NCBI GenBank assembly: GCA_030599585.1
Contig: JAUVNS010000006.1
Coordinates: forward strand, 160,001-224,000
Origin: Promethearchaeota archaeon
GTDB lineage: Archaea > Asgardarchaeota > Lokiarchaeia > Sigyniarchaeales > SOKP01
Reading direction: 5' to 3'
DNA length: 64,000 nt
Part shown: positions 8,216 to 46,427 of the stretch, one piece after another
How positions within the stretch are numbered: position 1 is the first letter of the stretch
Layout of the letters: every line of letters begins with the position of its first letter
The notes under the pieces: generated by a model
The model's input: only the letters and a program-made list of their open reading frames with translations
The model's database searches: none
Told to the model about the DNA's origin: nothing
Program-made: the position numbers and the translations under genes

Positions 8216-9115
8216 TTAACTCATAAGATTTGAAGAGTATTGCTGGACTAAATACTCGATTTTTTCAGCATCTAATTGTTCCTGTTCAAGTTCAGGGCAC
8301 ATGTGTTCAAGATGTGAAAGTAATTCGCTTAATCCTATCTCTGCTTCTTTTATATTGTCACTATCCTCTTCTCTGAGAACTATCGATCCCATTAGGTGGT
8401 CAGTTCGTTTAAAAATTATAATATTACCTTCAAGCCTAATTTGATTTAGTTCAGAGTTAAATGATTCTTTAGCGTATTGGGTAATAGCAGCAAATAAACC
8501 ACCATGCAAAATATCTTGATTGGAAGAAGACGTTAATGGTACTCCGCCTCTATCAAAAACTGTTAATGCTTTAGGAGTTGCCGCATTACCTATCCGTTTT
8601 CCAGTTAGTTTGTAATAAATTTTCGTGAATGCAGGCACAATACCAAATCCTGTTTTGCAGGAAATAGGTAGTATTTCAAATGTGTCAATTTTATGCAAGT
8701 CTAATGCTTTTATAATATCGCCCATGGAAGCTACTGGGGACATGTCAATCTTGTTTGTTAACACAATTAATGGTTTCTTCTTAAAAACTGATGATAGTTT
8801 CCATAATTCATCTTTCGCTTCGTTGAATCTTTCCCGGGCGTAAGCGTCTATCATAAAAATGACACATGAAGCGTTTGAGAGTTCTCCTAACCACATATCT
8901 CTAAAATCTTTTTGACCACCCATGTCCATAAGATTTATAGGAATACCTTGAACTTCTAGCTTAGTTAGCTCCTTTCCCATAGTTGGAGTATGCTTAACGA
9001 ATGTTCCACTTTGGAGAAAACTTACTAAAGTACTTTTTCCTGCATTATCCAACCCACAAATTACAATTTTTTTTTCTTTAGCGAAAAGTTTTTGTAAAAC
9101 ATTTTTAACGCCCAT
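8216..9115 (-). CDS. Arf-like small GTPase fused to a C-terminal longin-like domain (cassette copy 1)
   Basis: MG + amphipathic helix, GLDNAGKST, PTMG, DMGGQxxxRxxW, RERFNEAKDEL, NKID, SCKTG. C-terminal VFDRGGVPL...GGLFAAITQYAKESF longin-type pattern. Confidence 0.88.
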   Translation of the reverse strand: MGVKNVLQKLFAKEKKIVICGLDNAGKSTLVSFLQSGTFVKHTPTMGKELTKLEVQGIPINLMDMGGQKDFRDMWLGELSNASCVIFMIDAYARERFNEAKDELWKLSSVFKKKPLIVLTNKIDMSPVASMGDIIKALDLHKIDTFEILPISCKTGFGIVPAFTKIYYKLTGKRIGNAATPKALTVFDRGGVPLTSSSNQDILHGGLFAAITQYAKESFNSELNQIRLEGNIIIFKRTDHLMGSIVLREEDSDNIKEAEIGLSELLSHLEHMCPELEQEQLDAEKIEYLVQQYSSNLMS

Positions 9116-9162
9116 AGTCCCTCACATTATTTGTTTATATGATAATTTTTATTCTTAGTCCC

Positions 9163-9223
9163 TTATCCCTTAGACGAGAGATATCTATTAAATAGTAATA
9201 GATTTAATATTTAAACTTAAGTT
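9163..9223 (-). promoter_or_regulatory. Promoter/operator element upstream of the Arf-longin gene; repeated at 11109-11169
   Basis: Ungapped 49/61-nt match (hand count) to 11109-11169. Contains TTTAAATA (TATA-like) and CTAAGGGATAA on the minus strand. Confidence 0.7.
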
Positions 9224-9265
9224 AATTAAAAGAGTTAAAGAATATCTACATAATATAGGATACTT

Positions 9266-9916
9266 TTATTTCTTAGCTGTCAGTTTTGATATCCAAGCAT
9301 TCTGAATTTTTTCTTTTTCATCTTTATCGTGGAAAAGGTGCTTATCGAAAAACTCTAAAACTGCTAAAGTGGAGATAATTATTCCGATAATTCTTAATAT
9401 CTCAGGTATGATTGGAACTTGAAGCATTTTACCTAATCCATATATTAGAAAGAATAATCCAAGTCCAAAGGCAAGCCCATTACGTGTTTTTCTACCTTCT
9501 CTTAACAATATAACTGGAATAATAAAACCGATTATTACAGCATAAGAAATAAATAATATTAGAGTATCATTTATATAAAGCCCAAAACCTATGTAGAAAC
9601 TGGCAACTAATGGAAGCCAATACAATTTCTTCAACTTCTTAAGATAGAAGAAGAAGCGCAATTGAATGCTGAAAATTAATAGGGCAATAATGTTTGATAA
9701 GCTTAATCTGATACCTAAAACCAAATCTAAATCGATGAAAAATAGATTAGTAAGCCGAAAAATTGAATTAAAAAGCATTGCAGCAAAGAAAACTATTAAT
9801 CCAAGATAAATTGATTCCTTAATCTCCAAATAAGTTCTGATAATAATCAGTATTGTAATGACGCAAAAAATCAAAAAAACAATTTCTAGTATTAAAGGGA
9901 ACAACAAATCACTCAT
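9266..9916 (-). CDS. 7-TM membrane protein B (cassette copy 1)
   Basis: Likely start ATG 9916 (MSDLLFP...), overlapping the upstream stop by 8 nt. Seven hydrophobic segments. Homologous to 22328-22978 (GRK.RNGLA.G.GLFF; KI...WI.KL tail). Confidence 0.8.
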   Translation of the reverse strand: MSDLLFPLILEIVFLIFCVITILIIIRTYLEIKESIYLGLIVFFAAMLFNSIFRLTNLFFIDLDLVLGIRLSLSNIIALLIFSIQLRFFFYLKKLKKLYWLPLVASFYIGFGLYINDTLILFISYAVIIGFIIPVILLREGRKTRNGLAFGLGLFFLIYGLGKMLQVPIIPEILRIIGIIISTLAVLEFFDKHLFHDKDEKEKIQNAWISKLTAKK

Positions 9917-10562
9917 TTTGCTCAACCACACCTGCTTTAAATAATTTGAAATAACCAAGGGCGAAAATTAACCCAAAAATAGGATACACTAAACTTAAAA
10001 TCTGTCCAACTATTGTTTTTTCTGCTATTAGGGTTGGAAAAACAAGAGTAGCAAAGACAGCCAACCCTAATGAGCTATTATCTTTTAATTTAAATCCAGT
10101 GGCAAATAAAAACACAACTGCTATTACTCCACCCGCAAAAACATAAGGAAGAAGAAAAATAACTATTTCAGTTACCAAAAATACAATAAACATTCCTGCG
10201 AATATAAAAAAGGATAGAAAATAGAGCGATTCCCATCGATTTATATAACTCACCATTGATAGAGCTAGAGTGATCATTAATCCTAAGCCAAAACTATAAA
10301 ACGAAAATGTGTTAATTGAGATTATTAATTCTGCGTTGAGAACATCGCTGAGCGGTGTGCTTTCATAAAGAAACTCCCATATTAGGAGCCAGGAAAGCGA
10401 TAAGAAAATGCAGAATATAATAAATCTAATCATATTAAGTTTTTTTATTTGTCTTCTTTCTAATATTACTTTTCTACCTAATATTATCGTCATAATTGGA
10501 ATAATAATAATTCCAAGAAAATTTGCCACAAGTTCTATTATATCAGCTGTTTGTCCTAACAT
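9909..10562 (-). CDS. 7-TM membrane protein A (cassette copy 1)
   Basis: Seven hydrophobic segments. Homologous to 22980-23621 (IR.IIF; YINRWE.L.FS; FAGMF; KDN..LG.AVF). TAATG overlap with the upstream gene. Confidence 0.8.
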   Translation of the reverse strand: MLGQTADIIELVANFLGIIIIPIMTIILGRKVILERRQIKKLNMIRFIIFCIFLSLSWLLIWEFLYESTPLSDVLNAELIISINTFSFYSFGLGLMITLALSMVSYINRWESLYFLSFFIFAGMFIVFLVTEIVIFLLPYVFAGGVIAVVFLFATGFKLKDNSSLGLAVFATLVFPTLIAEKTIVGQILSLVYPIFGLIFALGYFKLFKAGVVEQNE

Positions 10563-11065
10563 TAGAAAAAACTACCTCGTACTTCAGGTCTAGATTTAAA
10601 TAATTTTGATTTTATATCTTTAAAAATGATCGATAGATCGATAGGAGCACCATCGATTAATATTAATTTTTCTTCGTTAATACCATTATAAATAGTTTGA
10701 ATATAGTCTGTTAAAACTTTTTCAGTTAGCAGGTCGCAATATTTCAATGTAGAAATAATGTTCTCTAAAACTGGTTTGTAAATATCAACATTTAACTTTT
10801 TCTTTATAAGAATAGAAATCGTTAATAAATCGTTTCTTTCTTCTTCATGTTCTATTTTGAATGCATACGACAAAACATTACACTTACTATATTTGCTTAC
10901 TGAGAAATCTCCACTATTAATACCTGTTGGAAGACATTTAGAAAGTAAGTCCTCTGATTCACTAAGAGTAGGATCAAGAGTAGGATAGGATATGACGATC
11001 TCTGGACTAGATAAATCGTAACCTCCTAATTTACATAGTATATACCGTTCTGTATTTTCAATCAT
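10562..11065 (-). CDS. Longin/uDENN-like domain protein (cassette copy 1)
   Basis: CKLGGY...PEIVISYP...LLSKCLPTG recalls the P.I...YP and C[FL]P.G motifs of uDENN-type longin domains. Homolog at 23623-24123. The fold call is an inference. Confidence 0.6.
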   Translation of the reverse strand: MIENTERYILCKLGGYDLSSPEIVISYPTLDPTLSESEDLLSKCLPTGINSGDFSVSKYSKCNVLSYAFKIEHEEERNDLLTISILIKKKLNVDIYKPVLENIISTLKYCDLLTEKVLTDYIQTIYNGINEEKLILIDGAPIDLSIIFKDIKSKLFKSRPEVRGSFF

Positions 11066-11108: not shown

Positions 11109-11169
11109 TTATCCCTTAGCTAATAGCGATCTAATAAATAGTAAAAGTTTGATTATTTAAATTTAAGTT
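11109..11169 (-). promoter_or_regulatory. Promoter/operator element upstream of the uDENN-7TM-7TM genes; repeated at 9163-9223
   Basis: 49/61-nt ungapped match to 9163-9223, at a similar distance from the start codon (44 vs 48 nt). Confidence 0.7.
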
Positions 11170-11227
11170 TAGCAAACTAATAATATAATATCTAAGTCGT
11201 ATCTATAAACGGTTACTAAAAAATGAT

Positions 11228-21160: not shown

Positions 21161-22057
21161 TTATAACAGATTTGAAGCGTATTGATCTACCAAATACTCG
21201 ATTTTGCTAGAATCTAATTGATCTTTCTCGAGCTCAGGGCACATGTGCTCTAAATGGAGCAATAAATCATTTAATCCTGATTCTACTTCCGGGATATCTA
21301 TGTTATCGCTTTCGTTAACAACTATTGAGCCCATAAGATGTTTCGATCGTTTGAAGATGATAAGATGTCCACCCATTTTAAGTTGATCAAGTTCTGAATT
21401 AAAAGATTCCCTCACAAAATTATGGATGGCGGTAAACAACCCCCCTTGTAATATATCTTCATTTGAGGATGATGTTAAAGGAATTCCTCCCTGATCAAAA
21501 ACGGTAATCGCTCTAAGGTTTGTCTTTTGGGTAAGATGCTTACCAGTTAATTTATAATAGATCTTCATAAATGCTTTTACAATTCCATAGCCTGTTTTAC
21601 ATGAAATCGGTAATACTTCAAAAGAGGGTAAATCTTTCAAATTCAAAGCTTCGATAATTTCACTAATTGAAGCAACAGGCTGAAGATCGTATTTATTTGC
21701 TAGTATTATCAGAGGTTTCTTCTTAAAAATAGAAGATAACTTCCATAGCTCGTCTCTAGCTTCGTTGAATCTTTCTCGAGCGTATGCGTCGATCATAAAT
21801 ATTACACACTCAGCAGTCGAGGCTTCACCAATCCATAAATTTCTGAAGTCTTTTTGACCACCCATATCCATAACATTAATACGAATTCCTTGTACTTCAA
21901 TTTGGGATAATTCTTTACCCATTGTGGGTGCATGTTCCATAAATGTACCATTCTGTAGAAAGGAAATCATGGTGGTTTTGCCAGCACTGTCAAGTCCGGT
22001 TATAACAATCTTCTTTTCTTTGGTAAATACTCGTTTTAAAATATCTTTAACTCCCAT
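21161..22057 (-). CDS. Arf-like small GTPase fused to a longin-like domain (cassette copy 2)
   Basis: MGVKDILKRVF, GLDSAGKTT, DMGGQKDFRNLW, NKYD, SCKTG. C-terminal VFDQGGIPL...GGLFTAIHNFVRESF. Close paralog of 8216-9115. Confidence 0.88.
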   Translation of the reverse strand: MGVKDILKRVFTKEKKIVITGLDSAGKTTMISFLQNGTFMEHAPTMGKELSQIEVQGIRINVMDMGGQKDFRNLWIGEASTAECVIFMIDAYARERFNEARDELWKLSSIFKKKPLIILANKYDLQPVASISEIIEALNLKDLPSFEVLPISCKTGYGIVKAFMKIYYKLTGKHLTQKTNLRAITVFDQGGIPLTSSSNEDILQGGLFTAIHNFVRESFNSELDQLKMGGHLIIFKRSKHLMGSIVVNESDNIDIPEVESGLNDLLLHLEHMCPELEKDQLDSSKIEYLVDQYASNLL

Positions 22058-22327
22058 TTTACTCAGTCTTAGGTTATTTTACATATATATATAATAATAA
22101 AATTTATATCTTGAAACTATAATAAAACTTTTTAGTTAAAAACGAAAGGATTTATGCTTTTGTTTGTTATGTTGCTACAGAATTATTTTTTTATAGAATT
22201 CATTTTCAGATTTTTCAGTAGAACAAAAAGAATTTACTATAAAAGTGCAAAGTTAAAACTAGATTAAATTATTGTTGATTTCCCTGATTAGATTAAAATT
22301 AAAAGAAAAAAAGAAAAAAAATCGTTA

Positions 22328-22978
22328 TTATTCCTTTACTACCAATTTTGCAATCCAGGTTCCCATTATCTTCTGTTCTTCTTCGACATTGACAAATACA
22401 TATTTCTCATAAAAACCTTTTGTTCCTAATAAGAGTGCCAACATAGCAACTATTCTAAAACTAATAAAAACAATTTCAGCCTGAAATAGCTGCCCAAGTC
22501 CCCATATAAAAAAGAACAATCCCATACCAATAGCTAACCCATTACGACTTTTTCTTCCGTCTTTTATGAGAAAGTAGGAAGAACCATAACTTACAATCAT
22601 CGCATAAATTATAAAAGGCATTGGCGAGTCAACTAAAACTCTTCCGATTGCCAGGTAAAAACTGCAAAATAAGGGAAGAGTGTATAGTTTAGGTAAATTT
22701 TTTAAATAGAACATGAACTCCAATTGAATCGTAAATAATATGAACCCGAGAATCATTCCAATTGTGATTCCTCCAGCTACTTTGATATCTATATCCAAGT
22801 CAAACGAGTATATTGCAATATCGATAGTGGATCTAAACAATACGGCTACAACATAAATTAATGCCGCCAATAACATTCGGTTTTTATTCATCTTCCAGTG
22901 TTTTAATGTCGTAAGGATAGCAATCAATCCCATAGTAAAGTAAACGAGTTCCATAATCAATAAGCCAATTTCCGCCAT
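22328..22978 (-). CDS. 7-TM membrane protein B (cassette copy 2)
   Basis: Seven hydrophobic segments. Shares IQL.F.FYLK.L.KLY.LPL..SFY and GRK.RNGLA with 9266-9916. Confidence 0.8.
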   Translation of the reverse strand: MAEIGLLIMELVYFTMGLIAILTTLKHWKMNKNRMLLAALIYVVAVLFRSTIDIAIYSFDLDIDIKVAGGITIGMILGFILFTIQLEFMFYLKNLPKLYTLPLFCSFYLAIGRVLVDSPMPFIIYAMIVSYGSSYFLIKDGRKSRNGLAIGMGLFFFIWGLGQLFQAEIVFISFRIVAMLALLLGTKGFYEKYVFVNVEEEQKIMGTWIAKLVVKE

Positions 22979-22979
22979 T

Positions 22980-23621
22980 TTAAGTTTCTACCTCCTGTTT
23001 AAATATTCTAAACAATCCCAATGAGAAGATAACAATAAAAACAACATAACTTATAATGATTATTCTTGATAGCAATGCTTCGTGTATGAACTGAGTGCTA
23101 AATGCTAGGGTGAAAAAGACTGCTATACCAAGAGCGCCATTGTCCTTCATGCGGATCGCCGTAAAGTATAAAAAGATAATACTTGCTGCTCCTGCAATTT
23201 GTGTGTAATCCTCAAGCCAAGCGTAAAATCCGGTAAATATATAGAGGAAGAACATCCCTGCGAAAAAGAAAATAGCTGAGAAGTGTAAAACTTCCCATCT
23301 ATTAATATAAAATATCAAAGTAAGGCCCAGTGTCACCATGATGGCTACGGAGGTATTATAAATACCAAATTCAGCGCTAAATATTTCATCCATAAAGGGT
23401 GTAGTGAACGGTGTATTGCTCACAAGAAACTCGGTGATAGCTAGTATCGAGAAGTTAAGAAAAGTACTAAAAATAATTAATCGTATAATATTGTATTTTC
23501 CCGCTTCTTTCTTGTCTTTTTGAAGCTTCCAGCCTAAAATTAACGTCGCCATAGGTATGAATATTGCGCTCGAAAGATTAGCCACAATTCCAAGACTAGA
23601 TATAATTAAATCTTCTGCCAT
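22980..23621 (-). CDS. 7-TM membrane protein A (cassette copy 2)
   Basis: Seven hydrophobic segments. Shares YINRWE, FAGMF and KDN..LG.AVF with 9909-10562. 1-nt spacing to both neighbours. Confidence 0.8.
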   Translation of the reverse strand: MAEDLIISSLGIVANLSSAIFIPMATLILGWKLQKDKKEAGKYNIIRLIIFSTFLNFSILAITEFLVSNTPFTTPFMDEIFSAEFGIYNTSVAIMVTLGLTLIFYINRWEVLHFSAIFFFAGMFFLYIFTGFYAWLEDYTQIAGAASIIFLYFTAIRMKDNGALGIAVFFTLAFSTQFIHEALLSRIIIISYVVFIVIFSLGLFRIFKQEVET

Positions 23622-23622
23622 T

Positions 23623-24123
23623 TTACAAAAAACTTCCTTTTAGTTTTATTTCTGGTTTAAGTATTTTAGATTTAATTTCTTTAAAAATAGTAGAAAGATC
23701 AATTAAGATGTCATTTATAGTAATATTTTTTTCTTGGTTAATTCCTTCAAAGATGATTCTTTGATTCTTAGTTAATATATGCTCGTTTAAAAGCCCATTC
23801 TGTTCTAAAGTATCTATTAAACTTTGAAGCACAGGCTTATAAATTTCTACTTTGTCTTTTTTATGAAGGAGTACCGATAATGAGAAGAGATCATCTCTAG
23901 CAGCACTTTGATTTACCCTGAAAATATACGATAAAACACTGTATTTGCGGTATTTATCGATAGTGAAATCTCCTGTTTTGGAGCCTACTGGAAAACATTT
24001 TGATAGGATTTCTGACTCTACTGACTTTCCTAACGATGGATAGGAGCTAATAATCTCCGGATTAGAATTCACATATCCTCCGAGTTTACAAATTACACTA
24101 TAATCTGAAGCCATTATAATCAC
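23623..24123 (-). CDS. Longin/uDENN-like domain protein (cassette copy 2)
   Basis: CKLGGY...PEIISSYP...ILSKCFPVG; C-terminal KGSFL (RGSFF in copy 1). Confidence 0.6.
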   Translation of the reverse strand: MIIMASDYSVICKLGGYVNSNPEIISSYPSLGKSVESEILSKCFPVGSKTGDFTIDKYRKYSVLSYIFRVNQSAARDDLFSLSVLLHKKDKVEIYKPVLQSLIDTLEQNGLLNEHILTKNQRIIFEGINQEKNITINDILIDLSTIFKEIKSKILKPEIKLKGSFL

Positions 24124-24289: not shown

Positions 24290-25555
24290 CTAAAAACTCA
24301 TTGCTTTTAGAAACTTTGGCCATAGTGTTATTTTTGAAAGAACCGGTATTGTAGCGAATAGTTTTTCTCCTACAAATCTGTCGTTATCGGTGTTATGTTT
24401 TGATAAATCTTGGTTAATATGTGCTTCGTATACATATTTACGAACCGTCTTATTAGTGTTTAATAGGTTAGCATAAGAATTCCAAAGCGTTTTGCTAGAA
24501 GAACTCTCATTATAAAAGAGATATTCACAGGCATTACCATTTCTAAAATATGTGAATAAGATTCGAGCAACCTCGTCGTCGTATTTCTTTAATTCAGCCC
24601 TTGAAAAATTCGAATTATTTTCGAGTAAAGATTCTAACATGGTCGATGCTATATCAGCGCTAGCCAATCCACATAAGATTCCTTCGTAAAAAAATGCTGT
24701 AACTAATCCTGCTGCTTCGCCTAACACGATAACGCGATCTTTTGAAAAGGAGTTTATTGGATGTTTCGAAATACCTCCACTTACAAATGGATTAGATTCG
24801 TCCCATTTGATTCCTTTCATCAATGGTTGAATTATTTTATAATTCTTAAGGATTCTAATTAACTTACTTTTGAGCTCTGCTGGAGTTTCTCTATTCCCTA
24901 AATATCCAGTTGCAATTCTTCCTTTTCCGACATTAAAGAAAAAGGGACCGTTCTGACTAATGTTAGGGTTTAGATGGAACATGTATTGAAAATTAAAATT
25001 CTGATCTAATAGAGTTTCATCAGCATAAATATTAGTATAAATTCCCATAAAGGATTCAGGGACTCCAAATCCTAACGATTTTTGCAGAGGAAAGCCTCGA
25101 GAACCTGTGGCTAAAACAAGAAGTTTAGTAGAATAAGATTCTCCTTTTCTATTAATGAGTTCAATATAGTCCGTATGCCTTACAATTTTGGTTATATTCT
25201 CGTTAAATTGAGTAGTACCACCTTGGTCTCTAAATTTATCGATAAGCTTTTTAATTAATACTTCAGTATGAGATATTTTTCCGAGTGGTGCTCCAAATTC
25301 TTTAGAGTTTAACAATCCATCATATTTTTCGCTTTTGTAATTTAACTGAACAAATGGTCGCGGAAATATCGAATCGTCGTTCCAGAACATAGCGTCGACA
25401 AACGGTTTGTTATGTTCAGCAAATATGTTTGTTCTTACGGGTATTTCTCGATCGTAATCTTGTGCTTCTACAAGCAATGTTTTCGCGTATTTTGAAGCTT
25501 TGTAAGCAAAGGACACTCCGGAAATTCCAGCACCAATAACAATAAAATCATACAT
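24290..25555 (-). CDS. FAD-dependent oxidoreductase, geranylgeranyl-reductase-like family
   Basis: YDFIVIGAGISG Rossmann motif, LATG, and VLGEAAGLVTAFFYEGI (a variant of GDAAG...EGI). Confidence 0.8.
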   Translation of the reverse strand: MYDFIVIGAGISGVSFAYKASKYAKTLLVEAQDYDREIPVRTNIFAEHNKPFVDAMFWNDDSIFPRPFVQLNYKSEKYDGLLNSKEFGAPLGKISHTEVLIKKLIDKFRDQGGTTQFNENITKIVRHTDYIELINRKGESYSTKLLVLATGSRGFPLQKSLGFGVPESFMGIYTNIYADETLLDQNFNFQYMFHLNPNISQNGPFFFNVGKGRIATGYLGNRETPAELKSKLIRILKNYKIIQPLMKGIKWDESNPFVSGGISKHPINSFSKDRVIVLGEAAGLVTAFFYEGILCGLASADIASTMLESLLENNSNFSRAELKKYDDEVARILFTYFRNGNACEYLFYNESSSSKTLWNSYANLLNTNKTVRKYVYEAHINQDLSKHNTDNDRFVGEKLFATIPVLSKITLWPKFLKAMSF

Positions 25556-41885: not shown

Positions 41886-44800
41886 ATGAAAATAAACAAG
41901 AAAATTTCATCTTTTTTAATCACGACGATACTGTTTTTATCGATTACGGGGCTTGTAATAGCCAGAACGAGTCAATTTAGTGATTTTACAGGAGAAGGGC
42001 ATTCAAGCTGTCACGGAAATATAACAGAAAGCACAAGTGGGTATATTTCTTTATCGTCAAGTTCAGGATCATCTGTAGCGCCAAGTGAAACTTTTACAAT
42101 AACAATTCAAATATTAAGTTTTAGTGAGGCTCTCAATGAAAAAAAAAAAACTACAGTAGGGTTTCCAAGTGGATCTCCTGGTAGAGGAGATAATAAGGAT
42201 TTTTCCTTTAACACAACTCAAGAAGAAATCGATATAGATAGTTCTGGGAATTCAGTTACATTAGATTTTCAAGTTACAGCACCAGCAACTGAACAAACCT
42301 ATACTCTCCATTCTGATGCTATTTACAAAGGCGGCTCAACCTATTTTGCTCATGGTAATTTTACTGTTACTGTGGAAGTGCAAAATAATCCACCTCAATT
42401 TAGTAATATAGTTGAGAGTAGCGATCCTTTAGAATTTGGCCAACAAGAAACTTTTCAAGTCGATGTGACTGATTCTGAAACAAGTGTAGACACTGTCTTT
42501 ATTGAATTAGAAGGTACTAACTACACTATGTCTAATACTGTTGGAGATACATTCGAGTATAACTGGATTTCAAATACACTTGGCACAAAAAATTATGTTT
42601 TTTATGCAAATGATACAGATGGAAGTTGGAATTCAACAAGTGGAAATATAAATATAATTGATACTACTAATCCAACTTTGACAAATTTAATTGAAAGCGC
42701 CGATCCTTTAGAGTTAGGTCAAATAGAAACGATTCAAATCAATGCAACCGATTTGTCTGGTATCAGTCAAGTTATGATAGAGATTGAAAGTGCAAATTAC
42801 ACAATGGTAAATATTGGTGGAACTATATGGGAATACGACAGCTGGACTCCAGTTACCACCGGATTGAAACTATATACTATTTTTACGAACGATACTGAAG
42901 GTAATTGGAATTCTCTAAGTAATTCAATAACTGTTCAAGATACGGTACAACCCTCGTTGACAAGTCTAGTAGAAAGTGCAGACCCTTTAGAGTTAGGACA
43001 AACAGAAACGATCCAAATCAATGCAACAGATTTATCTGGTATTAGTCATGTTTTAATCGAAATCGCCAGCACGAATTACAGCATGAACCAAATTGATACA
43101 AACACTTACCAATTTAATACATGGAATCCGTCATCAGTGGGAGTAAAAGGTTACACCATTTATGCAAACGATTCTAAAGGAAATTGGAATTCTCTAAGTA
43201 ATTCAATAACGGTTCAAGATACTACTCTTCCATCTCTTTTTAATTTAGTTGAAATTACTGATCCTATAGAGATAGGCCAAACAGAAACGATTCAAATTAA
43301 CGCAACTGATTTATCTGGTATTAGTCATGTGCTTATAGAAATTGGTGGTATAAATTATACGATGACAAAAATCAGTAGCGCAACTTGGGAATACAATAGT
43401 TGGACGCCGTTGTCTGCCGGTTTAAAATCTTATAAGATTTTTGTGAATGATACTGAAGGCAATTGGAACTCTTTAAACGATTCAATAACCGTTCAAGACA
43501 CAAATCAACCTTTGTTAACGAATTTGGTAGAAAGTGCTGACCCTTTAGAGTTAGGACAAACAGAAACAATCCAAATCAATGCAACTGATTTATCTGGTAT
43601 TAGTCATGTGTTTATCGAAATTGGTGGTATAAATTATACATTAACAAAAATCAATAGCGCAACTTGGGAATACAATAGTTGGATACCAACAACAGTAGGA
43701 TTAAAATCTTATACTATTTATGCTAATGACACTGAAGGTAATTGGAATTCAGTATTAAACGATATCACAGTAGAAGACACAAAAGCACCGAAATATTCCG
43801 ATTTAATTGAAAGTGCTGATCCACTCCCATATGGTCAGAATGAAACAATTTCCATTAATGTTTATGATAATCCAGGTTCTGGAGTGAAGGAAGTAATTCT
43901 TGAATATAACAATATTAATCACACGATGATTTTTATGGGATTCAGCACCTGGTCATGGCCAAATTGGAAACCATCATCCACAGGAACCTTTAATTATACC
44001 ATTTACATGATAGATAATAGCGATAATTTAAATACGACAACAGGTTCTATTGAAGTTATCATATCTTCGGGTCCGACAATTCAAAACATATCTAAAAGTG
44101 CAGATCCTTTAGAGCTAGGCCAAATAGAAACTATTCAGGTTGATGTTAATGATACTGATGGAATTAGTGTTGTATTTATAGAAATCGGGGGACAGAACTA
44201 TACGATGGGAAACATTGGTGGAAGTACATATGAATATTCCTGGTCACCTAATTTAACTGGGACAAAATTGTTTACAGTATACGCTAATGATTCTTTAAAT
44301 AATTGGAATCAATTAAGTAACAGCATCTATGTTCAAGACACAATACCTCCAAATTACGCAAATTTAATAGAAAATAGCGATCCTGTTGAATTGGGAAATA
44401 GCGTAACAATTTCTATTGACGCTACAGACTTATCAGGCATAAATCAAGTTAAAATTGAATTTGATGGCGTGAATTATACTATGTCTAATCTAGGAGGAAA
44501 TATGTGGTCAAACGATACTTGGATTCCTGGGACTGTTGATGTCTTTTCATACACTATATTTATTCAAGATAAATCAAATAATTGGAATAGCACAAGTGGA
44601 AGTATTGAAGTAATAGACACAATATCGCCTGAATTATCAAATTTATATGAGGAATACGAACCAATAGAATTAGGCCAGAGTCAAACGATTCAGGTTAATA
44701 TCAGTGACTTAGCTTCTATAAGTTTAGTACTACTTGAATTTCAGGGAGTAAATTATACTATGACAAAAATAGGTAGCCAAACTTGGGAATACAACAACTT

Positions 44801-46427
44801 AATTCCAATTGGAATAGGTTTAAAAGTCTATTCAATTTACGCAAATGATTCGAGTAATAACTGGATTTCTTTAACTGCCAATTTTACAGTTGTAGATACT
44901 AATGCTCCTGTATTATCTAATTTATTTGAAAATGCAGATCCACTGGAACTAGGACAGACGGTTACAATTCAAATCACTGCAACTGATTTATCTGGTATTA
45001 GCTACGTACTAATAGAGCTTGATAGCGTGAATTATACCATGGCATTTATAGGTGGCAACACATGGGAGTATAATAGTTGGACGCCAATTACCTCCGGATT
45101 AAAATTGTATACTATTTACGCAAATGATACTAACGGAAATTGGAATTCTTTCAATAGCGATATTACTATAGTAGATTCGAGTGGACCATCTTTAGGTAGT
45201 TTGTCCGAAAGTGCAGATCCACTAGAACTAGGACAGACAGTAACAATTCAAATCAATGCTACTGATTCATCTGGTATCAGTCATGTGCTAATAGAACTGG
45301 ATAGCGTGAATTATACCATGGCATTTTTAGGTGGCAACACATGGGAATATAATAGTTGGACTCCAAGTACTACGGGATTGAAATTGTATACAATTTACGC
45401 AAATGACACGGAAGGAAATTGGAATTTATTAATCGATTCAATAACAGTTCAAGATACAATAATACCGGTCTTATCAACCCTTATAGAAAGTGCTGATCCA
45501 TTAGAACTAGGGGAGACAGAAACTATTCAAATTAATGCAACTGATTTATCTGGTATTAGCTACGTGCTAATAGAGCTTGATGGTGTGAATTATACCATGG
45601 CATTTATAGGTGGCAACATATGGGAATATAATAGTTGGACACCAATTACCTCCGGATTAAAACTGTATACAATTTACGCAAATGATACTAACGGAAATTG
45701 GAATTCTTTCAATAGCGATATTACTATAGTAGATTCGAGTGGACCATCTTTAAGTAATTTATTTGAGAATGCGGACCCGTTAGAATTAGGACGGACGGAA
45801 ACTATTCAAATTGATGTTAATGATTTATCAGGAATCAGTCATGTGTTAATAGAAATCAGTGGTTTAAATTACACGATGACAAACATCAGTAGCGCAACTT
45901 GGGAATACAATAGTTGGACGCCGTTGTTTACCGGTTTAAAATCTTATAAGATTTTTGTGAATGATACTGAAGGTAATTGGAACACTTTAAGCGATTTTAT
46001 CACCGTTCGAGACACAAATCAACCTTTGTTAACGAATTTGGTAGAAAGTGCAGACCCTTTAGAGTTAGGACAAACAGAAACAATCCAAATCAATGCAACT
46101 GATCTATCTGGTATCAGTCACGTGCTAATTGAAATCAGTGGTTTAAATTACACGATGACGAAAATTAGTAGTGCAACCTGGGAATATAATAATTGGATAC
46201 CAACAAAAGAAGGATTAAAATCTTATACTATTTATGCTAATGACACTGAAGGTAATTGGAATTCAGAAAGTGATACAATTATGGTGAATACGCAAGGTGG
46301 TAATGAGAATACCGGTATGTCTGAGGAATTTCTTGATTTAATTGTTATATTTAGTACATTCGGTAGTTTAGGCGTTTTTTCGTTAGTCTTAGTGATTAAA
46401 CTAAGACCTAAACGTTTTATTAAGTAA
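41886..46427 (+). CDS. Giant surface protein: N-terminal HxxCH (Reeler-like) domain, 14 Ig-like repeats, C-terminal TM anchor
   Basis: Signal peptide, GHSSCHG, 14 copies of an ESADPLELGQ...NATDLSGI...NYTM...W...YANDT.GNWN repeat, then a C-terminal TM and basic tail. Confidence 0.85.
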   Translation: MKINKKISSFLITTILFLSITGLVIARTSQFSDFTGEGHSSCHGNITESTSGYISLSSSSGSSVAPSETFTITIQILSFSEALNEKKKTTVGFPSGSPGRGDNKDFSFNTTQEEIDIDSSGNSVTLDFQVTAPATEQTYTLHSDAIYKGGSTYFAHGNFTVTVEVQNNPPQFSNIVESSDPLEFGQQETFQVDVTDSETSVDTVFIELEGTNYTMSNTVGDTFEYNWISNTLGTKNYVFYANDTDGSWNSTSGNINIIDTTNPTLTNLIESADPLELGQIETIQINATDLSGISQVMIEIESANYTMVNIGGTIWEYDSWTPVTTGLKLYTIFTNDTEGNWNSLSNSITVQDTVQPSLTSLVESADPLELGQTETIQINATDLSGISHVLIEIASTNYSMNQIDTNTYQFNTWNPSSVGVKGYTIYANDSKGNWNSLSNSITVQDTTLPSLFNLVEITDPIEIGQTETIQINATDLSGISHVLIEIGGINYTMTKISSATWEYNSWTPLSAGLKSYKIFVNDTEGNWNSLNDSITVQDTNQPLLTNLVESADPLELGQTETIQINATDLSGISHVFIEIGGINYTLTKINSATWEYNSWIPTTVGLKSYTIYANDTEGNWNSVLNDITVEDTKAPKYSDLIESADPLPYGQNETISINVYDNPGSGVKEVILEYNNINHTMIFMGFSTWSWPNWKPSSTGTFNYTIYMIDNSDNLNTTTGSIEVIISSGPTIQNISKSADPLELGQIETIQVDVNDTDGISVVFIEIGGQNYTMGNIGGSTYEYSWSPNLTGTKLFTVYANDSLNNWNQLSNSIYVQDTIPPNYANLIENSDPVELGNSVTISIDATDLSGINQVKIEFDGVNYTMSNLGGNMWSNDTWIPGTVDVFSYTIFIQDKSNNWNSTSGSIEVIDTISPELSNLYEEYEPIELGQSQTIQVNISDLASISLVLLEFQGVNYTMTKIGSQTWEYNNLIPIGIGLKVYSIYANDSSNNWISLTANFTVVDTNAPVLSNLFENADPLELGQTVTIQITATDLSGISYVLIELDSVNYTMAFIGGNTWEYNSWTPITSGLKLYTIYANDTNGNWNSFNSDITIVDSSGPSLGSLSESADPLELGQTVTIQINATDSSGISHVLIELDSVNYTMAFLGGNTWEYNSWTPSTTGLKLYTIYANDTEGNWNLLIDSITVQDTIIPVLSTLIESADPLELGETETIQINATDLSGISYVLIELDGVNYTMAFIGGNIWEYNSWTPITSGLKLYTIYANDTNGNWNSFNSDITIVDSSGPSLSNLFENADPLELGRTETIQIDVNDLSGISHVLIEISGLNYTMTNISSATWEYNSWTPLFTGLKSYKIFVNDTEGNWNTLSDFITVRDTNQPLLTNLVESADPLELGQTETIQINATDLSGISHVLIEISGLNYTMTKISSATWEYNNWIPTKEGLKSYTIYANDTEGNWNSESDTIMVNTQGGNENTGMSEEFLDLIVIFSTFGSLGVFSLVLVIKLRPKRFIK
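42385..46290 (+). repeat. Intragenic tandem repeat: 14 units of about 279 nt (93 aa)
   Basis: GAAAGCGCCGATCC at 42693 and GAAAGTGCAGACCC at 42972 are 279 nt apart. 14 DPLE-like motifs counted. Boundaries are approximate. Confidence 0.9.

Follow-up and report, generated by a model that had tools for sequence, protein, structure and literature searches.

Introduction

The GATOR1 complex and the Rag GTPases are membrane-based and are tied to the polytopic proteins SLC38A9 and LYCHOS/GPR155. In GATOR1/SEACIT (PDB 6ces, 7t3b, 8adl), NPRL2-NPRL3 is an arginine-finger GTPase-activating protein (GAP) on RagA. Here we describe a four-gene block from an Asgard archaeon that invites comparison with this system (Promethearchaeota archaeon, class Lokiarchaeia, order Sigyniarchaeales, assembly GCA_030599585.1). 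The block occurs twice in a 64-kb stretch of contig JAUVNS010000006.1 (positions 160,001 to 224,000, hereafter the window) and encodes a small protein (S), two polytopic membrane proteins (MB and MA) and an Arf-family GTPase (G). We propose that it forms a membrane-docked Arf-type switch in which S is a longin regulator of G, most probably a GAP that would act through an invariant arginine, Arg77, and we put the probability of this reading at about 55%. What the analysis shows are gene linkage, predicted folds, conserved residues and topology.

The likeness to GATOR1 and Rag lies in S and in the C-terminal part of G. The model of S superposes on the NPRL2 lobe over its full length (Z up to 14.3) and carries its invariant arginine in the same loop at nearly the same residue number (77 vs 78). 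G, like the Rag GTPases, carries a C-terminal domain that appears to be of the longin/roadblock type. Unlike in GATOR1, S comprises 167 amino acids (aa), the remainder of NPRL2 being missing, the block contains neither an NPRL3- nor a DEPDC5-like gene, and S shows no sequence similarity to NPRL2; the full NPRL2 architecture is absent. G is Arf-type by every motif, and the partners are encoded in one operon with two putative seven-transmembrane (7TM) proteins.

The longin GAPs proposed for Arf GTPases (C9orf72-SMCR8-WDR41; Avl9/DENND6/DENND11) also place an arginine-bearing longin beside an Arf-family GTPase, as S does. According to the available part of a preprint (10.64898/2026.01.05.697756), the monomeric DENN-type candidates carry the arginine finger between longin strands β4 and β5, and a 2025 article in Traffic (PMC12290439), as far as its accessible text goes, gives Arg147 as the conserved finger of SMCR8 and reports Asgard longins with an arginine finger and a GP motif that may act on ArfR or Rag. 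S differs from SMCR8 and the DENN proteins in having no DENN or d-DENN part and no WDR41-like partner, and its similarity to SMCR8, C9orf72 and DENND1 (Z 7.5-9.5) is below that to NPRL2.

Closest to the GTPase domain of G are the Asgard ArfR/AArf proteins (HodArfR1, GerdArfR1; 8oul, 8ouk, 8oum, 8oun; E 2e-24), with which it has P-loop and switch features, and putatively N-terminal ones, in common. Unlike the ArfRs studied so far, G is Lokiarchaeial and has an extra C-terminal domain of 125 residues; the accessible sections of the ArfR reports describe mainly Heimdall-group proteins with no large flanking domains, and mention no regulators or gene neighborhoods. Zhu et al. 2025 (PMC11914678), in the text available, state that native GEFs (guanine nucleotide exchange factors) as well as GAPs of Asgard Arfs are still unidentified.

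Prokaryotic operons joining a small GTPase to a roadblock/longin-superfamily regulator have been described, namely MglA-MglB and, in the accessible part of Liu et al. 2021, an Asgard LAMTOR1-like/Rab-like/DENN operon. They differ in their GTPases (MglA, Rab-like), in their regulators (a roadblock dimer, a full DENN protein) and in having no membrane proteins, as far as the descriptions at hand go. The available text of Tran et al. 2024 (PMC10933270) describes GTPases of MK-D1, a cultured Lokiarchaeon, fused to longin or roadblock domains, with which the architecture of G agrees, and notes that in MK-D1 the genes of small GTPases do not as a rule share an operon with those of longin or roadblock proteins. 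S fits the asCOG class “NPRL2-like longin domain” listed for Asgards in the portions at hand of Liu et al. and Rodrigues-Oliveira et al., and a 2026 preprint mentions “7TM proteins” of Asgards along with structural clusters that are GPCR-like, giving no gene context in the part available. The parts are thus of known kinds, going by the accessible sections of these reports: Vargová et al. and Zhu et al. described Asgard ArfR GTPases, Tran et al. GTPases fused to longin or roadblock domains, and Liu et al. NPRL2-like longins. Our literature search returned no description of the operon, of a pairing between an arginine-bearing longin and an Arf-type GTPase, or of GPCR-fold membrane partners, in agreement with the first-pass annotation of this DNA, which knew of no account of the operon. 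What we found no precedent for in the literature is therefore the operon, the pairing and the two membrane partners with a putative GPCR fold; in kind, it would be a longin-GAP/small-GTPase module.

Two copies of the four-gene block

The first-pass annotation had placed the same four genes, in the same order and on the same strand, at 8216-11065 (copy 1) and 21161-24123 (copy 2); these and all other window coordinates are positions in the whole 64-kb stretch. Eight open reading frames (ORFs) were found there, all on the minus strand, as two blocks in the order S-MB-MA-G, and pairwise BLASTP bore out the correspondence:

S1, 10562..11065, minus strand: ORF of 167 aa, first gene of copy 1; small soluble protein, predicted NPRL2-like longin with Arg77
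MB1, 9909..10562, minus strand: ORF of 217 aa, predicted seven-helix membrane protein; 1-nucleotide (nt) overlap with S1
MA1, 9266..9916, minus strand: ORF of 216 aa from ATG, polytopic membrane protein; 8-nt overlap with MB1
G1, 8216..9115, minus strand: ORF of 299 aa, Arf-family GTPase with a putative C-terminal longin/roadblock-like domain; separate promoter-like leader
S2, 23623..24123, minus strand: ORF of 166 aa from GTG, paralogue of S1
MB2, 22980..23621, minus strand: ORF, paralogue of MB1
MA2, 22328..22978, minus strand: ORF, paralogue of MA1; oligo-T run after the gene
G2, 21161..22057, minus strand: ORF, paralogue of G1; oligo-T run after the gene

The ORF list also offered a longer TTG start for MA1 at 9958, where we chose the ATG, and the probable true start of S2 is the ATG at 24114, which the orthologues favor. 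Identity between the copies was 68% for G (E 3e-164), 48% for S (E 2e-51), 39% for MB (E 3e-46) and 37% for MA (E 8e-46). On these comparisons the two blocks are best described as old paralogues.

The coupling proposed earlier for the first three genes could be read directly in the sequence. In copy 1 the S1/MB1 junction is TAATG (1-nt overlap) and the MB1/MA1 junction is ATGAGTGA (8-nt overlap); in copy 2 both the S2/MB2 and the MB2/MA2 junctions are TAAAATG (1-nt gap). Such overlaps and 1-nt gaps argue that S, MB and MA are translationally coupled. G begins 150 nt beyond MA in copy 1, and in copy 2 the distance is 270 nt.

Upstream of copy 1 lies a ThiC-like gene and upstream of copy 2 an FAD/geranylgeranyl-reductase-like gene (24290-25555), both named by eye from their translations. 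As the flanks of the two copies differ, the duplicated unit is exactly these four genes. The 4.85-Mb assembly as a whole contains two copies of S and no more.

The small protein S is a predicted NPRL2-like longin domain

S has no Pfam (including NPR2), NCBIfam or PADLOC match. Its AlphaFold2 (AF2) model, built from a 37-sequence alignment (pLDDT 87, pTM 0.80), has the topology β1-β2-α1-β3-β4-β5-α2-α3, as in longin domains, and after it one more helix, a hairpin and a last helix. In the Foldseek search suggested by the first-pass annotation, the Npr2/NPRL2 chains of SEAC and GATOR1 ranked first for S (E 2e-5 to 8e-4). VIA-align gave the same answer: NPRL2 scored Z 12.8-14.3 (root-mean-square deviation (rmsd) 3.4-4.0 over 144-158 residues), the top match covering 157 of 167 residues at Z 14.3 (model 3-167 on NPRL2 5-174), ahead of NPRL3 (Z 11.5), the Lokiarchaeal longin 8yqg (Z 11.1), DENND1 (Z 9.5, through its longin part only), FLCN (Z 9.2) and adaptin sigma/zeta (Z 8-9). 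The model thus identifies S as a predicted stand-alone longin domain, closest by a clear margin to the N-terminal lobe of NPRL2. The same family encompasses 121 clusters among 1.84 billion representatives, nearly all of 155-180 aa and stand-alone.

The small protein had been called uDENN-like. The fold class implied by that name, longin, held up, and the DENN module did not: S ends after the longin lobe without a core DENN or d-DENN part, and its NPRL2 scores stand well apart from the 9.5 of DENND1. We therefore rejected S as a DENN-module protein.

Ten residues of S are invariant (L13, G15, S19, P46, G48, Y67, F69, R77, D79 and L80). Among them Arg77, which is invariant in all 37 sequences and also kept in distant S-like proteins, lies in the model in the loop between β4 (62-72) and β5 (78-88). 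Human NPRL2 has G20-P21 and its finger at Arg78, as checked in the 6ces_N sequence. From the collinear structural ranges, Pro21 and Arg77 of S would correspond in place to Pro21 and Arg78 of NPRL2, and Pro21 of S aligns to Pro21 of NPRL2 in a non-significant hhalign comparison.

The first-pass annotation had implied that a longin/DENN regulator would be an exchange factor. The invariant arginine in the predicted β4-β5 loop points to S being a GAP and not an exchange factor. Alternatively, S could be a GEF or a passive dimerization scaffold for G, as are Mon1-Ccz1, TRAPP, the DENN longins and Ragulator/roadblock proteins, with the arginine being structural. Most characterized longin platforms are indeed GEFs or scaffolds according to the available text of PMC12290439, S also matches the longins of DENND1, Mon1-Ccz1, Fuzzy-Inturned and adaptin sigma/zeta at Z 7.5-9.5, and its GP motif is imperfect. 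However, the scores of GEF-type longins fall 3-5 Z units short of that of NPRL2, whose match spans all of S, and the invariant arginine is situated where NPRL2 (Arg78) and the proposed DENN-type Arf GAPs carry their finger. Moreover, intrinsic GTP hydrolysis by Asgard Arfs is very low and no GAP is known for them, as stated in the accessible part of PMC11914678. We consider this alternative quite unlikely.

One locus joins S to the tail of G. L050:4673-5500 (contig C8 of genome G280, minus strand) encodes an S-type longin and the C-terminal domain of G (Gc) as one in-frame product of 275 aa, and MB, MA and the GTPase domain are missing. This locus is orthologous to copy 2, with the same FAD-reductase-like neighbor (L050:5644-6912). 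The fusion hints at a direct relationship between S and the tail.

G is an Arf-type GTPase with a putative Rag-like layout

Residues 5-166 of G match Pfam Arf (PF00025) with 119 bits (cut-off 22.3), and the scores against Pfam Ras, Roc, Gtr1_RagA, SRPRB and G-alpha are far below. The Arf motifs GLDNAGKS (P-loop), PTMG (switch I), DMGGQKDFRDMW (switch II, of the DxGGQxxxRxxW type) and NKID are present, and their key residues are invariant in 18 orthologues. The best PDB matches were 8oul, 8oun, 8ouk and 8oum (E ~2e-24), followed by Arl3 and Arf1. These entries are deposited as “Arf GTPase” or “GTP-binding protein”; since the ArfR preprint, in the part available, names 8oum as GerdArfR1, we read the four as Asgard ArfR structures. 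The N-terminus, MGVKNVLQKLFAKE, has Gly2 and a 13-residue basic/hydrophobic stretch resembling the membrane helix of Arf proteins, with a hydrophobic moment (0.34-0.49) that 17-31% of shuffled sequences reach and that is not significant.

The GTPase domain takes up residues 1-170 and is followed by a C-terminal domain of ~125 residues (~175-299). This tail is well conserved, with G191, P193, G205, A210, I211, G243 and H268-L269-E270 among its invariant residues. All its profile matches were sub-threshold: LAMTOR3 (MAPKK1_Int, E 0.005), Fuz_longin_1 (0.006), LAMTOR5 and Intu_longin_1. The ESM score was 0.84-0.85, which we take as a lead only. A hidden Markov model of the tail also matched N-terminal domains of nearby multi-domain proteins that have weak longin matches themselves. 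These weak matches suggest a domain of the longin/roadblock superfamily, and we leave the subtype open. The earlier description of an Arf-like GTPase with a longin tail thus stands firmly for the first part and, for the second, at the level of the superfamily and of sub-threshold matches. By its sequence G appears to be an Arf-type GTPase domain in a Rag-like layout.

Three other identities were tried and rejected. As a Rag/Gtr protein, G scores 26 bits against Gtr1_RagA (23 for copy 2; cut-off 22), ~90 bits below Arf, and its motifs are all Arf-type. As a heterotrimeric Gα subunit it reaches 31 bits against Pfam G-alpha (cut-off 48.8), in the switch region only, and the helical-domain insertion is absent. 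The tail as a paralogue of S was dismissed at an hhalign probability of 0.3%.

Linkage of S and G across Asgard genomes

The first-pass annotation had proposed a search for the four genes across Asgard genomes and had counted their failure to co-occur elsewhere against a module. We sampled 400 genomes of the phylum (Asgard) for distribution and determined gene order in two rounds, first searching 40 relatives with S and then comparing the eight proteins by tblastn with 20 retrieved loci. The genes do co-occur. Full-length S matches (E <= 1e-27) were found only in three families of the organism's own order, with S in 51 genomes of that order when two partial or contig-end matches are counted; MB turned up in 48 genomes, all from these three families, and at E <= 1e-5 in no others. 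Both were present in 45 of the 54 genomes having either, all 54 from the one order, with S alone in 6 and MB alone in 3. Of the six genomes with S alone, two show an incomplete match at or close to the end of a contig, and a third has the S-Gc fusion. MB directly follows S in every genome for which both coordinates were listed.

Within the organism's own genus the order is S-MB-MA-G. In other families of the same order it is G-S-MB-MA, with G at the front, as in a closed 6.04-Mb genome (L041). Linkage that is kept despite a changed gene order is good evidence of selection on co-location. Duplications of the whole block also occur elsewhere, in tandem in L048 and divergently in L049.

Pairs of G and S without MA or MB occur inside the order (L037, L035), and a simpler version of the pair extends beyond it. 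In families f13 and f18, which belong to other Asgard classes, S-like proteins (E 1e-7 to 1e-23) adjoin plain Arf GTPases of ~180-210 aa (Pfam Arf 6e-42), again without MA or MB, and these S-like proteins retain the arginine and the surrounding SY.F.I....R(D/N) motif. Four such loci are listed here:

L042:4428-5609: pair of S-like longin and plain Arf GTPase (f13/f18)
L043:4870-6023: pair of S-like longin and plain Arf GTPase (f13/f18)
L044:4477-5545: pair of S-like longin and plain Arf GTPase (f13/f18)
L045:4440-5469: pair of S-like longin and plain Arf GTPase (f13/f18)

The existence of S-Arf pairs without membrane genes in other lineages suggests that S-Arf is the old core and that the 7TM pair is an order-specific addition.

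Clustering without shared function, for instance in an accessory island such as a mobile or defense-related cassette, was also considered. Such an island could explain why the block is patchy in the genus (S in 22 of 41 genomes), was repeatedly duplicated and recombined internally. Yet the linkage outlasts the change of gene order between families, three of the genes are translationally coupled, the S-Arf pairing reaches other Asgard classes, and no PADLOC or mobile-element signature was detected. We rejected a defense or mobile island for lack of support in that scan, and mere co-location in general is extremely improbable.

Two observations were made beside these loci. In L042 and L045, proteins of 465-471 aa with an Intu_longin_1-like N-terminal domain are encoded ~1.1-1.8 kb from the pair on the same strand. 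One genome of the order with a high G+C content encodes a member of the S family without G, MA or MB (L040:3876-4376), and ~2 kb from it lies a gene for a 360-aa small GTPase with a long C-terminal extension (L040:6578-7660), in a layout that by eye is Rag-like.

Evolution inside the module

For each of the four proteins a maximum-likelihood tree was built from 18 modules. Copy 1 and its orthologue in one sister genome form a separate, long-branched clade in all four trees, which indicates that the duplication took the whole block. An FAD-reductase-like neighbor is common to copy 2 and L050, which places copy 2 at the ancestral locus of the genus; copy 1, by the ThiC-like gene, is the derived copy. 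In copy 2, G, S and MA group with L022/L027 (supports 100/100, 98/95 and 98/97, respectively), whereas MB2 groups with L023/L024 (100/99), unlike its three neighbors. This conflict suggests that MB2 was replaced through recombination.

Median terminal branch lengths were 0.12 for G, 0.24 for S, 0.48 for MA and 0.54 for MB, so that the membrane proteins change 4-5 times faster than G. Fast, exchangeable membrane subunits around a slow cytoplasmic core would fit a role in specificity or in facing the environment, although this is only suggestive. Membrane proteins often evolve fast anyway.

MA and MB as probable membrane partners, and the predicted GPCR-like topology of MB

Neither MA nor MB has a Pfam, NCBIfam or PADLOC match, and their 85 and 83 database relatives are all unnamed Asgard proteins without Pfam domains. 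The two were linked to each other by hhalign (probability 92%, E 5e-7, 108 columns in register), and they have matching motifs after the fifth helix (RxGxKxRNGLAFG in MA, GxKxKDNxxLGLA in MB). On this evidence MA and MB appear to be distant paralogues, which in turn suggests a heterodimer.

The AF2 model of MB (pLDDT 88, pTM 0.84) has seven transmembrane (TM) helices. Its predicted cytoplasmic loops and tail contain 11 Lys and Arg residues against 1 outside, a bias that predicts an N-out/C-in orientation. With 19, 5 and 4 residues, the external loops are too short for an ectodomain. Conservation is higher in the cytoplasmic loops (2.44 bits, with a maximum of 3.02 in the third intracellular loop (ICL3)) than outside (1.62), MB1 having a conserved ICL3 motif around K160-D161. 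No conserved polar or charged residue was found inside the helical bundle of MB. MA is polytopic by hydropathy, with a conserved cytoplasmic C-terminal stretch (I204, W208, I209), and is linked to a seven-helix fold only through its hhalign match to MB. Of the two 7TM proteins first proposed, MB is thus the one with seven predicted TM helices, its nearest solved folds being G-protein-coupled receptors (GPCRs), and MA qualifies as its distant paralogue.

Foldseek returned no match for MB at E <= 1e-3 (best E 0.013), so the check that succeeded for S gave nothing of this strength here. An independent fold search with VIA-align against 48,161 chains gave a top 50 made up entirely of 7TM folds of the GPCR type and designed versions of them. 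The best match, ADGRL3 (Z 15.4, rmsd 3.6, 186 residues), lies just above the ~13-14 that unrelated helical bundles can reach by VIA-align's own warning. Designed GPCR-like folds, receptors of the adhesion, secretin (class B), C, F, T and A types, and the GPCR-like domain of LYCHOS (Z 9.5) were also among these matches. We take the predicted GPCR-like seven-helix topology of MB as a topology and not as homology. Microbial rhodopsins were rejected as an identity for MA or MB: TM7 of MB (184-201) has no Lys, nor has the final TM segment of MA, and a cyanorhodopsin was only a weak Foldseek match of MB (E 0.013, TM 0.39).

The Arf family is the small-GTPase family regarded as closest to Gα. The module resembles a GPCR/G-protein system in that MB is a predicted 7TM bundle of GPCR topology with a conserved cytoplasmic face, encoded with MA beside a GTPase of that family and a GAP-like protein. 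It differs in lacking GPCR sequence motifs, an ectodomain, a Gα helical domain and βγ subunits. No GPCR sequence family or class motif was found in MA or MB with Pfam, NCBIfam and the 168 database relatives. Moreover, the 7TM genes of the module occur in one order of Lokiarchaeia, and the likeness is at the level of the fold and near the helical-bundle background.

A GPCR-like receptor-transducer is the reading that this resemblance suggests: MA-MB would bind a ligand in the bundle and act as a GEF for G, with S as an RGS-like off-switch. The exclusively GPCR-type top 50 of MB would be expected from it, as would the orientation of MB and the concentration of conserved positions in ICL2, ICL3 and the C-terminal tail, where GPCRs engage G proteins. 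The kinship generally assumed between Arf and Gα also agrees with it, and so do membrane genes that evolve 4-5 times faster than G, one of them swapped by recombination, as could be the case for an environment-facing specificity subunit. It is weakened by the empty Pfam 7tm and other sequence searches, by a bundle with no conserved polar residue below external loops of 4-19 residues, by the Foldseek result and the near-background Z of MB, and by G-S pairs in other lineages that do without MA and MB. We regard it as unlikely.

Related claims concern what such a system would mean. A GPCR-fold heterodimer could control the nucleotide state of an Arf-type GTPase, with the longin arginine finger as off-switch; this prokaryotic 7TM-receptor/GTPase system would then be a working analogue, possibly a relative, of the GPCR-Gα-RGS and LYCHOS/GATOR1/Rag axes, and pre-eukaryotic. 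We hold these claims, taken together, to be distinctly improbable. Direct ancestry to GPCR/G-protein signaling is unlikely: the 7TM genes occur in no more than a single order of Lokiarchaeia.

MA and MB could also be clients, that is, a transporter, a lipid-handling or another membrane machine controlled by G-S, as in SRβ-SRX at the endoplasmic reticulum or in the control of cargo by Arf. G does match Pfam SRPRB marginally (26 bits, cut-off 25), SRX is among the weak longin matches of S, and the G-S core exists without MA and MB. In addition, the ESM Atlas places MA, besides its own cluster, only near clusters of unnamed, uncharacterized membrane proteins from bacteria and Nitrososphaerota (score 0.94, a lead only). 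Against this, neither transporter nor enzyme folds are represented among the top 50 structural matches of MB, charged or polar residues are not conserved within the membrane, and the S-MB-MA coupling suggests a stoichiometric complex and not an enzyme-substrate relation. A client role is very unlikely in our view.

In family f4, MA has a cytoplasmic C-terminal extension of ~100 residues that is Cys/His-rich (CPxC ... C.H) and zinc-ribbon-like. The long MA genes are:

L033:1779-2711: MA gene with C-terminal extension
L034:3249-4193: MA gene with C-terminal extension
L036:2267-3232: MA gene with C-terminal extension

Proposed mechanism and significance

We favor a model where the module is a membrane-docked switch with S as GAP of G. 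MA and MB would probably pair as a heterodimer whose conserved surface faces the cytoplasm and serves as a membrane platform. S could be produced in fixed proportion with them through translational coupling, and would insert Arg77 from its longin β4-β5 loop beside the catalytic Gln68 of G, speeding GTP hydrolysis by analogy with NPRL2 on RagA, FLCN on RagC, and SMCR8 and Avl9 on Arf1. The partner of the G tail is probably either the longin domain of S or the cytoplasmic side of MA-MB, and this contact would keep the switch at the membrane. As the 7TM pair is almost without extracellular mass, any signal sensed would lie within or across the membrane, and if MA and MB sense one, the pair may set the fraction of G that stays GTP-bound. 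Every physical contact in this model, the GAP activity, the signal and the downstream effectors are what we infer from the locus.

Several observations weigh against this model. Among longin domains, exchange factors or scaffolds outnumber GAPs. The equivalence of Arg77 and Arg78 comes from collinear ranges and not from residue-level superposition, and the GP motif is approximate: the consensus of S before β2 is G-S-N-P-E (SSPE in S1), so the Gly is not adjacent to the Pro, and Pro21 is replaced in 3 of the 17 sequences of alignment A1. Sequence gave no similarity between S and NPRL2, the PDB profile search returning only noise and hhalign of the S profile against the NPRL2 15-88 fragment a probability of 0.1%; as these searches were empty, the link between S and NPRL2 is a structural one. 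For the tail of G, profile and ESM comparisons gave no above-threshold fold match, and its profile did not resemble that of S. As to the S-Gc fusion, one case only was found, and it could be a deletion scar instead of a Rosetta-stone fusion. The non-significant N-terminal helix of G and the narrow margin of MB over helical bundles belong here as well. Finally, about half of the genomes of the genus are without the module, including assemblies estimated to be 99-100% complete, and its absence from near-complete genomes means that it is dispensable.

To our knowledge, Asgards have many Arf- and Rag-like GTPases and longins, and assignments of regulators to GTPases have not been established. The module and the simpler S-like/Arf pairs offer a concrete candidate, in which an NPRL2-like longin is matched to an Arf-type GTPase, and thereby candidate native regulators for the Arf GTPases of archaea. 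If S is a GAP, longin arginine-finger GAP chemistry on Arf-family switches would predate eukaryotes. The membrane proteins with their putative GPCR fold are a possible membrane input and, if this is true, would mark the first instance in a prokaryote of a 7TM protein coupled to a small G protein. Experiments are practical, given four small proteins and a closed 6.04-Mb genome of the same order that carries the module.

Other features of the window

Alignment of the four upstream regions revealed a direct repeat in copy 1:

9163..9248, minus strand: promoter/leader-like element upstream of G1, 86-nt direct repeat with a TTTAAATA box on the coding strand
11109..11194, minus strand: second copy of the promoter/leader-like element, upstream of S1, same repeat

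The two elements are 76% identical and lie at equal distance upstream of G1 and S1, which suggests that the two transcription units of copy 1 may be co-regulated. A general module promoter was rejected because copy 2 has no counterpart, which makes the repeat a peculiarity of copy 1.

The G+C content of the window is ~32%, and those database relatives of its proteins that bear names come from Lokiarchaeota/Promethearchaeota and Sigynarchaeota metagenome-assembled genomes. The longest ORF of the window, of 1513 aa, lies on the plus strand at 41886-46427.

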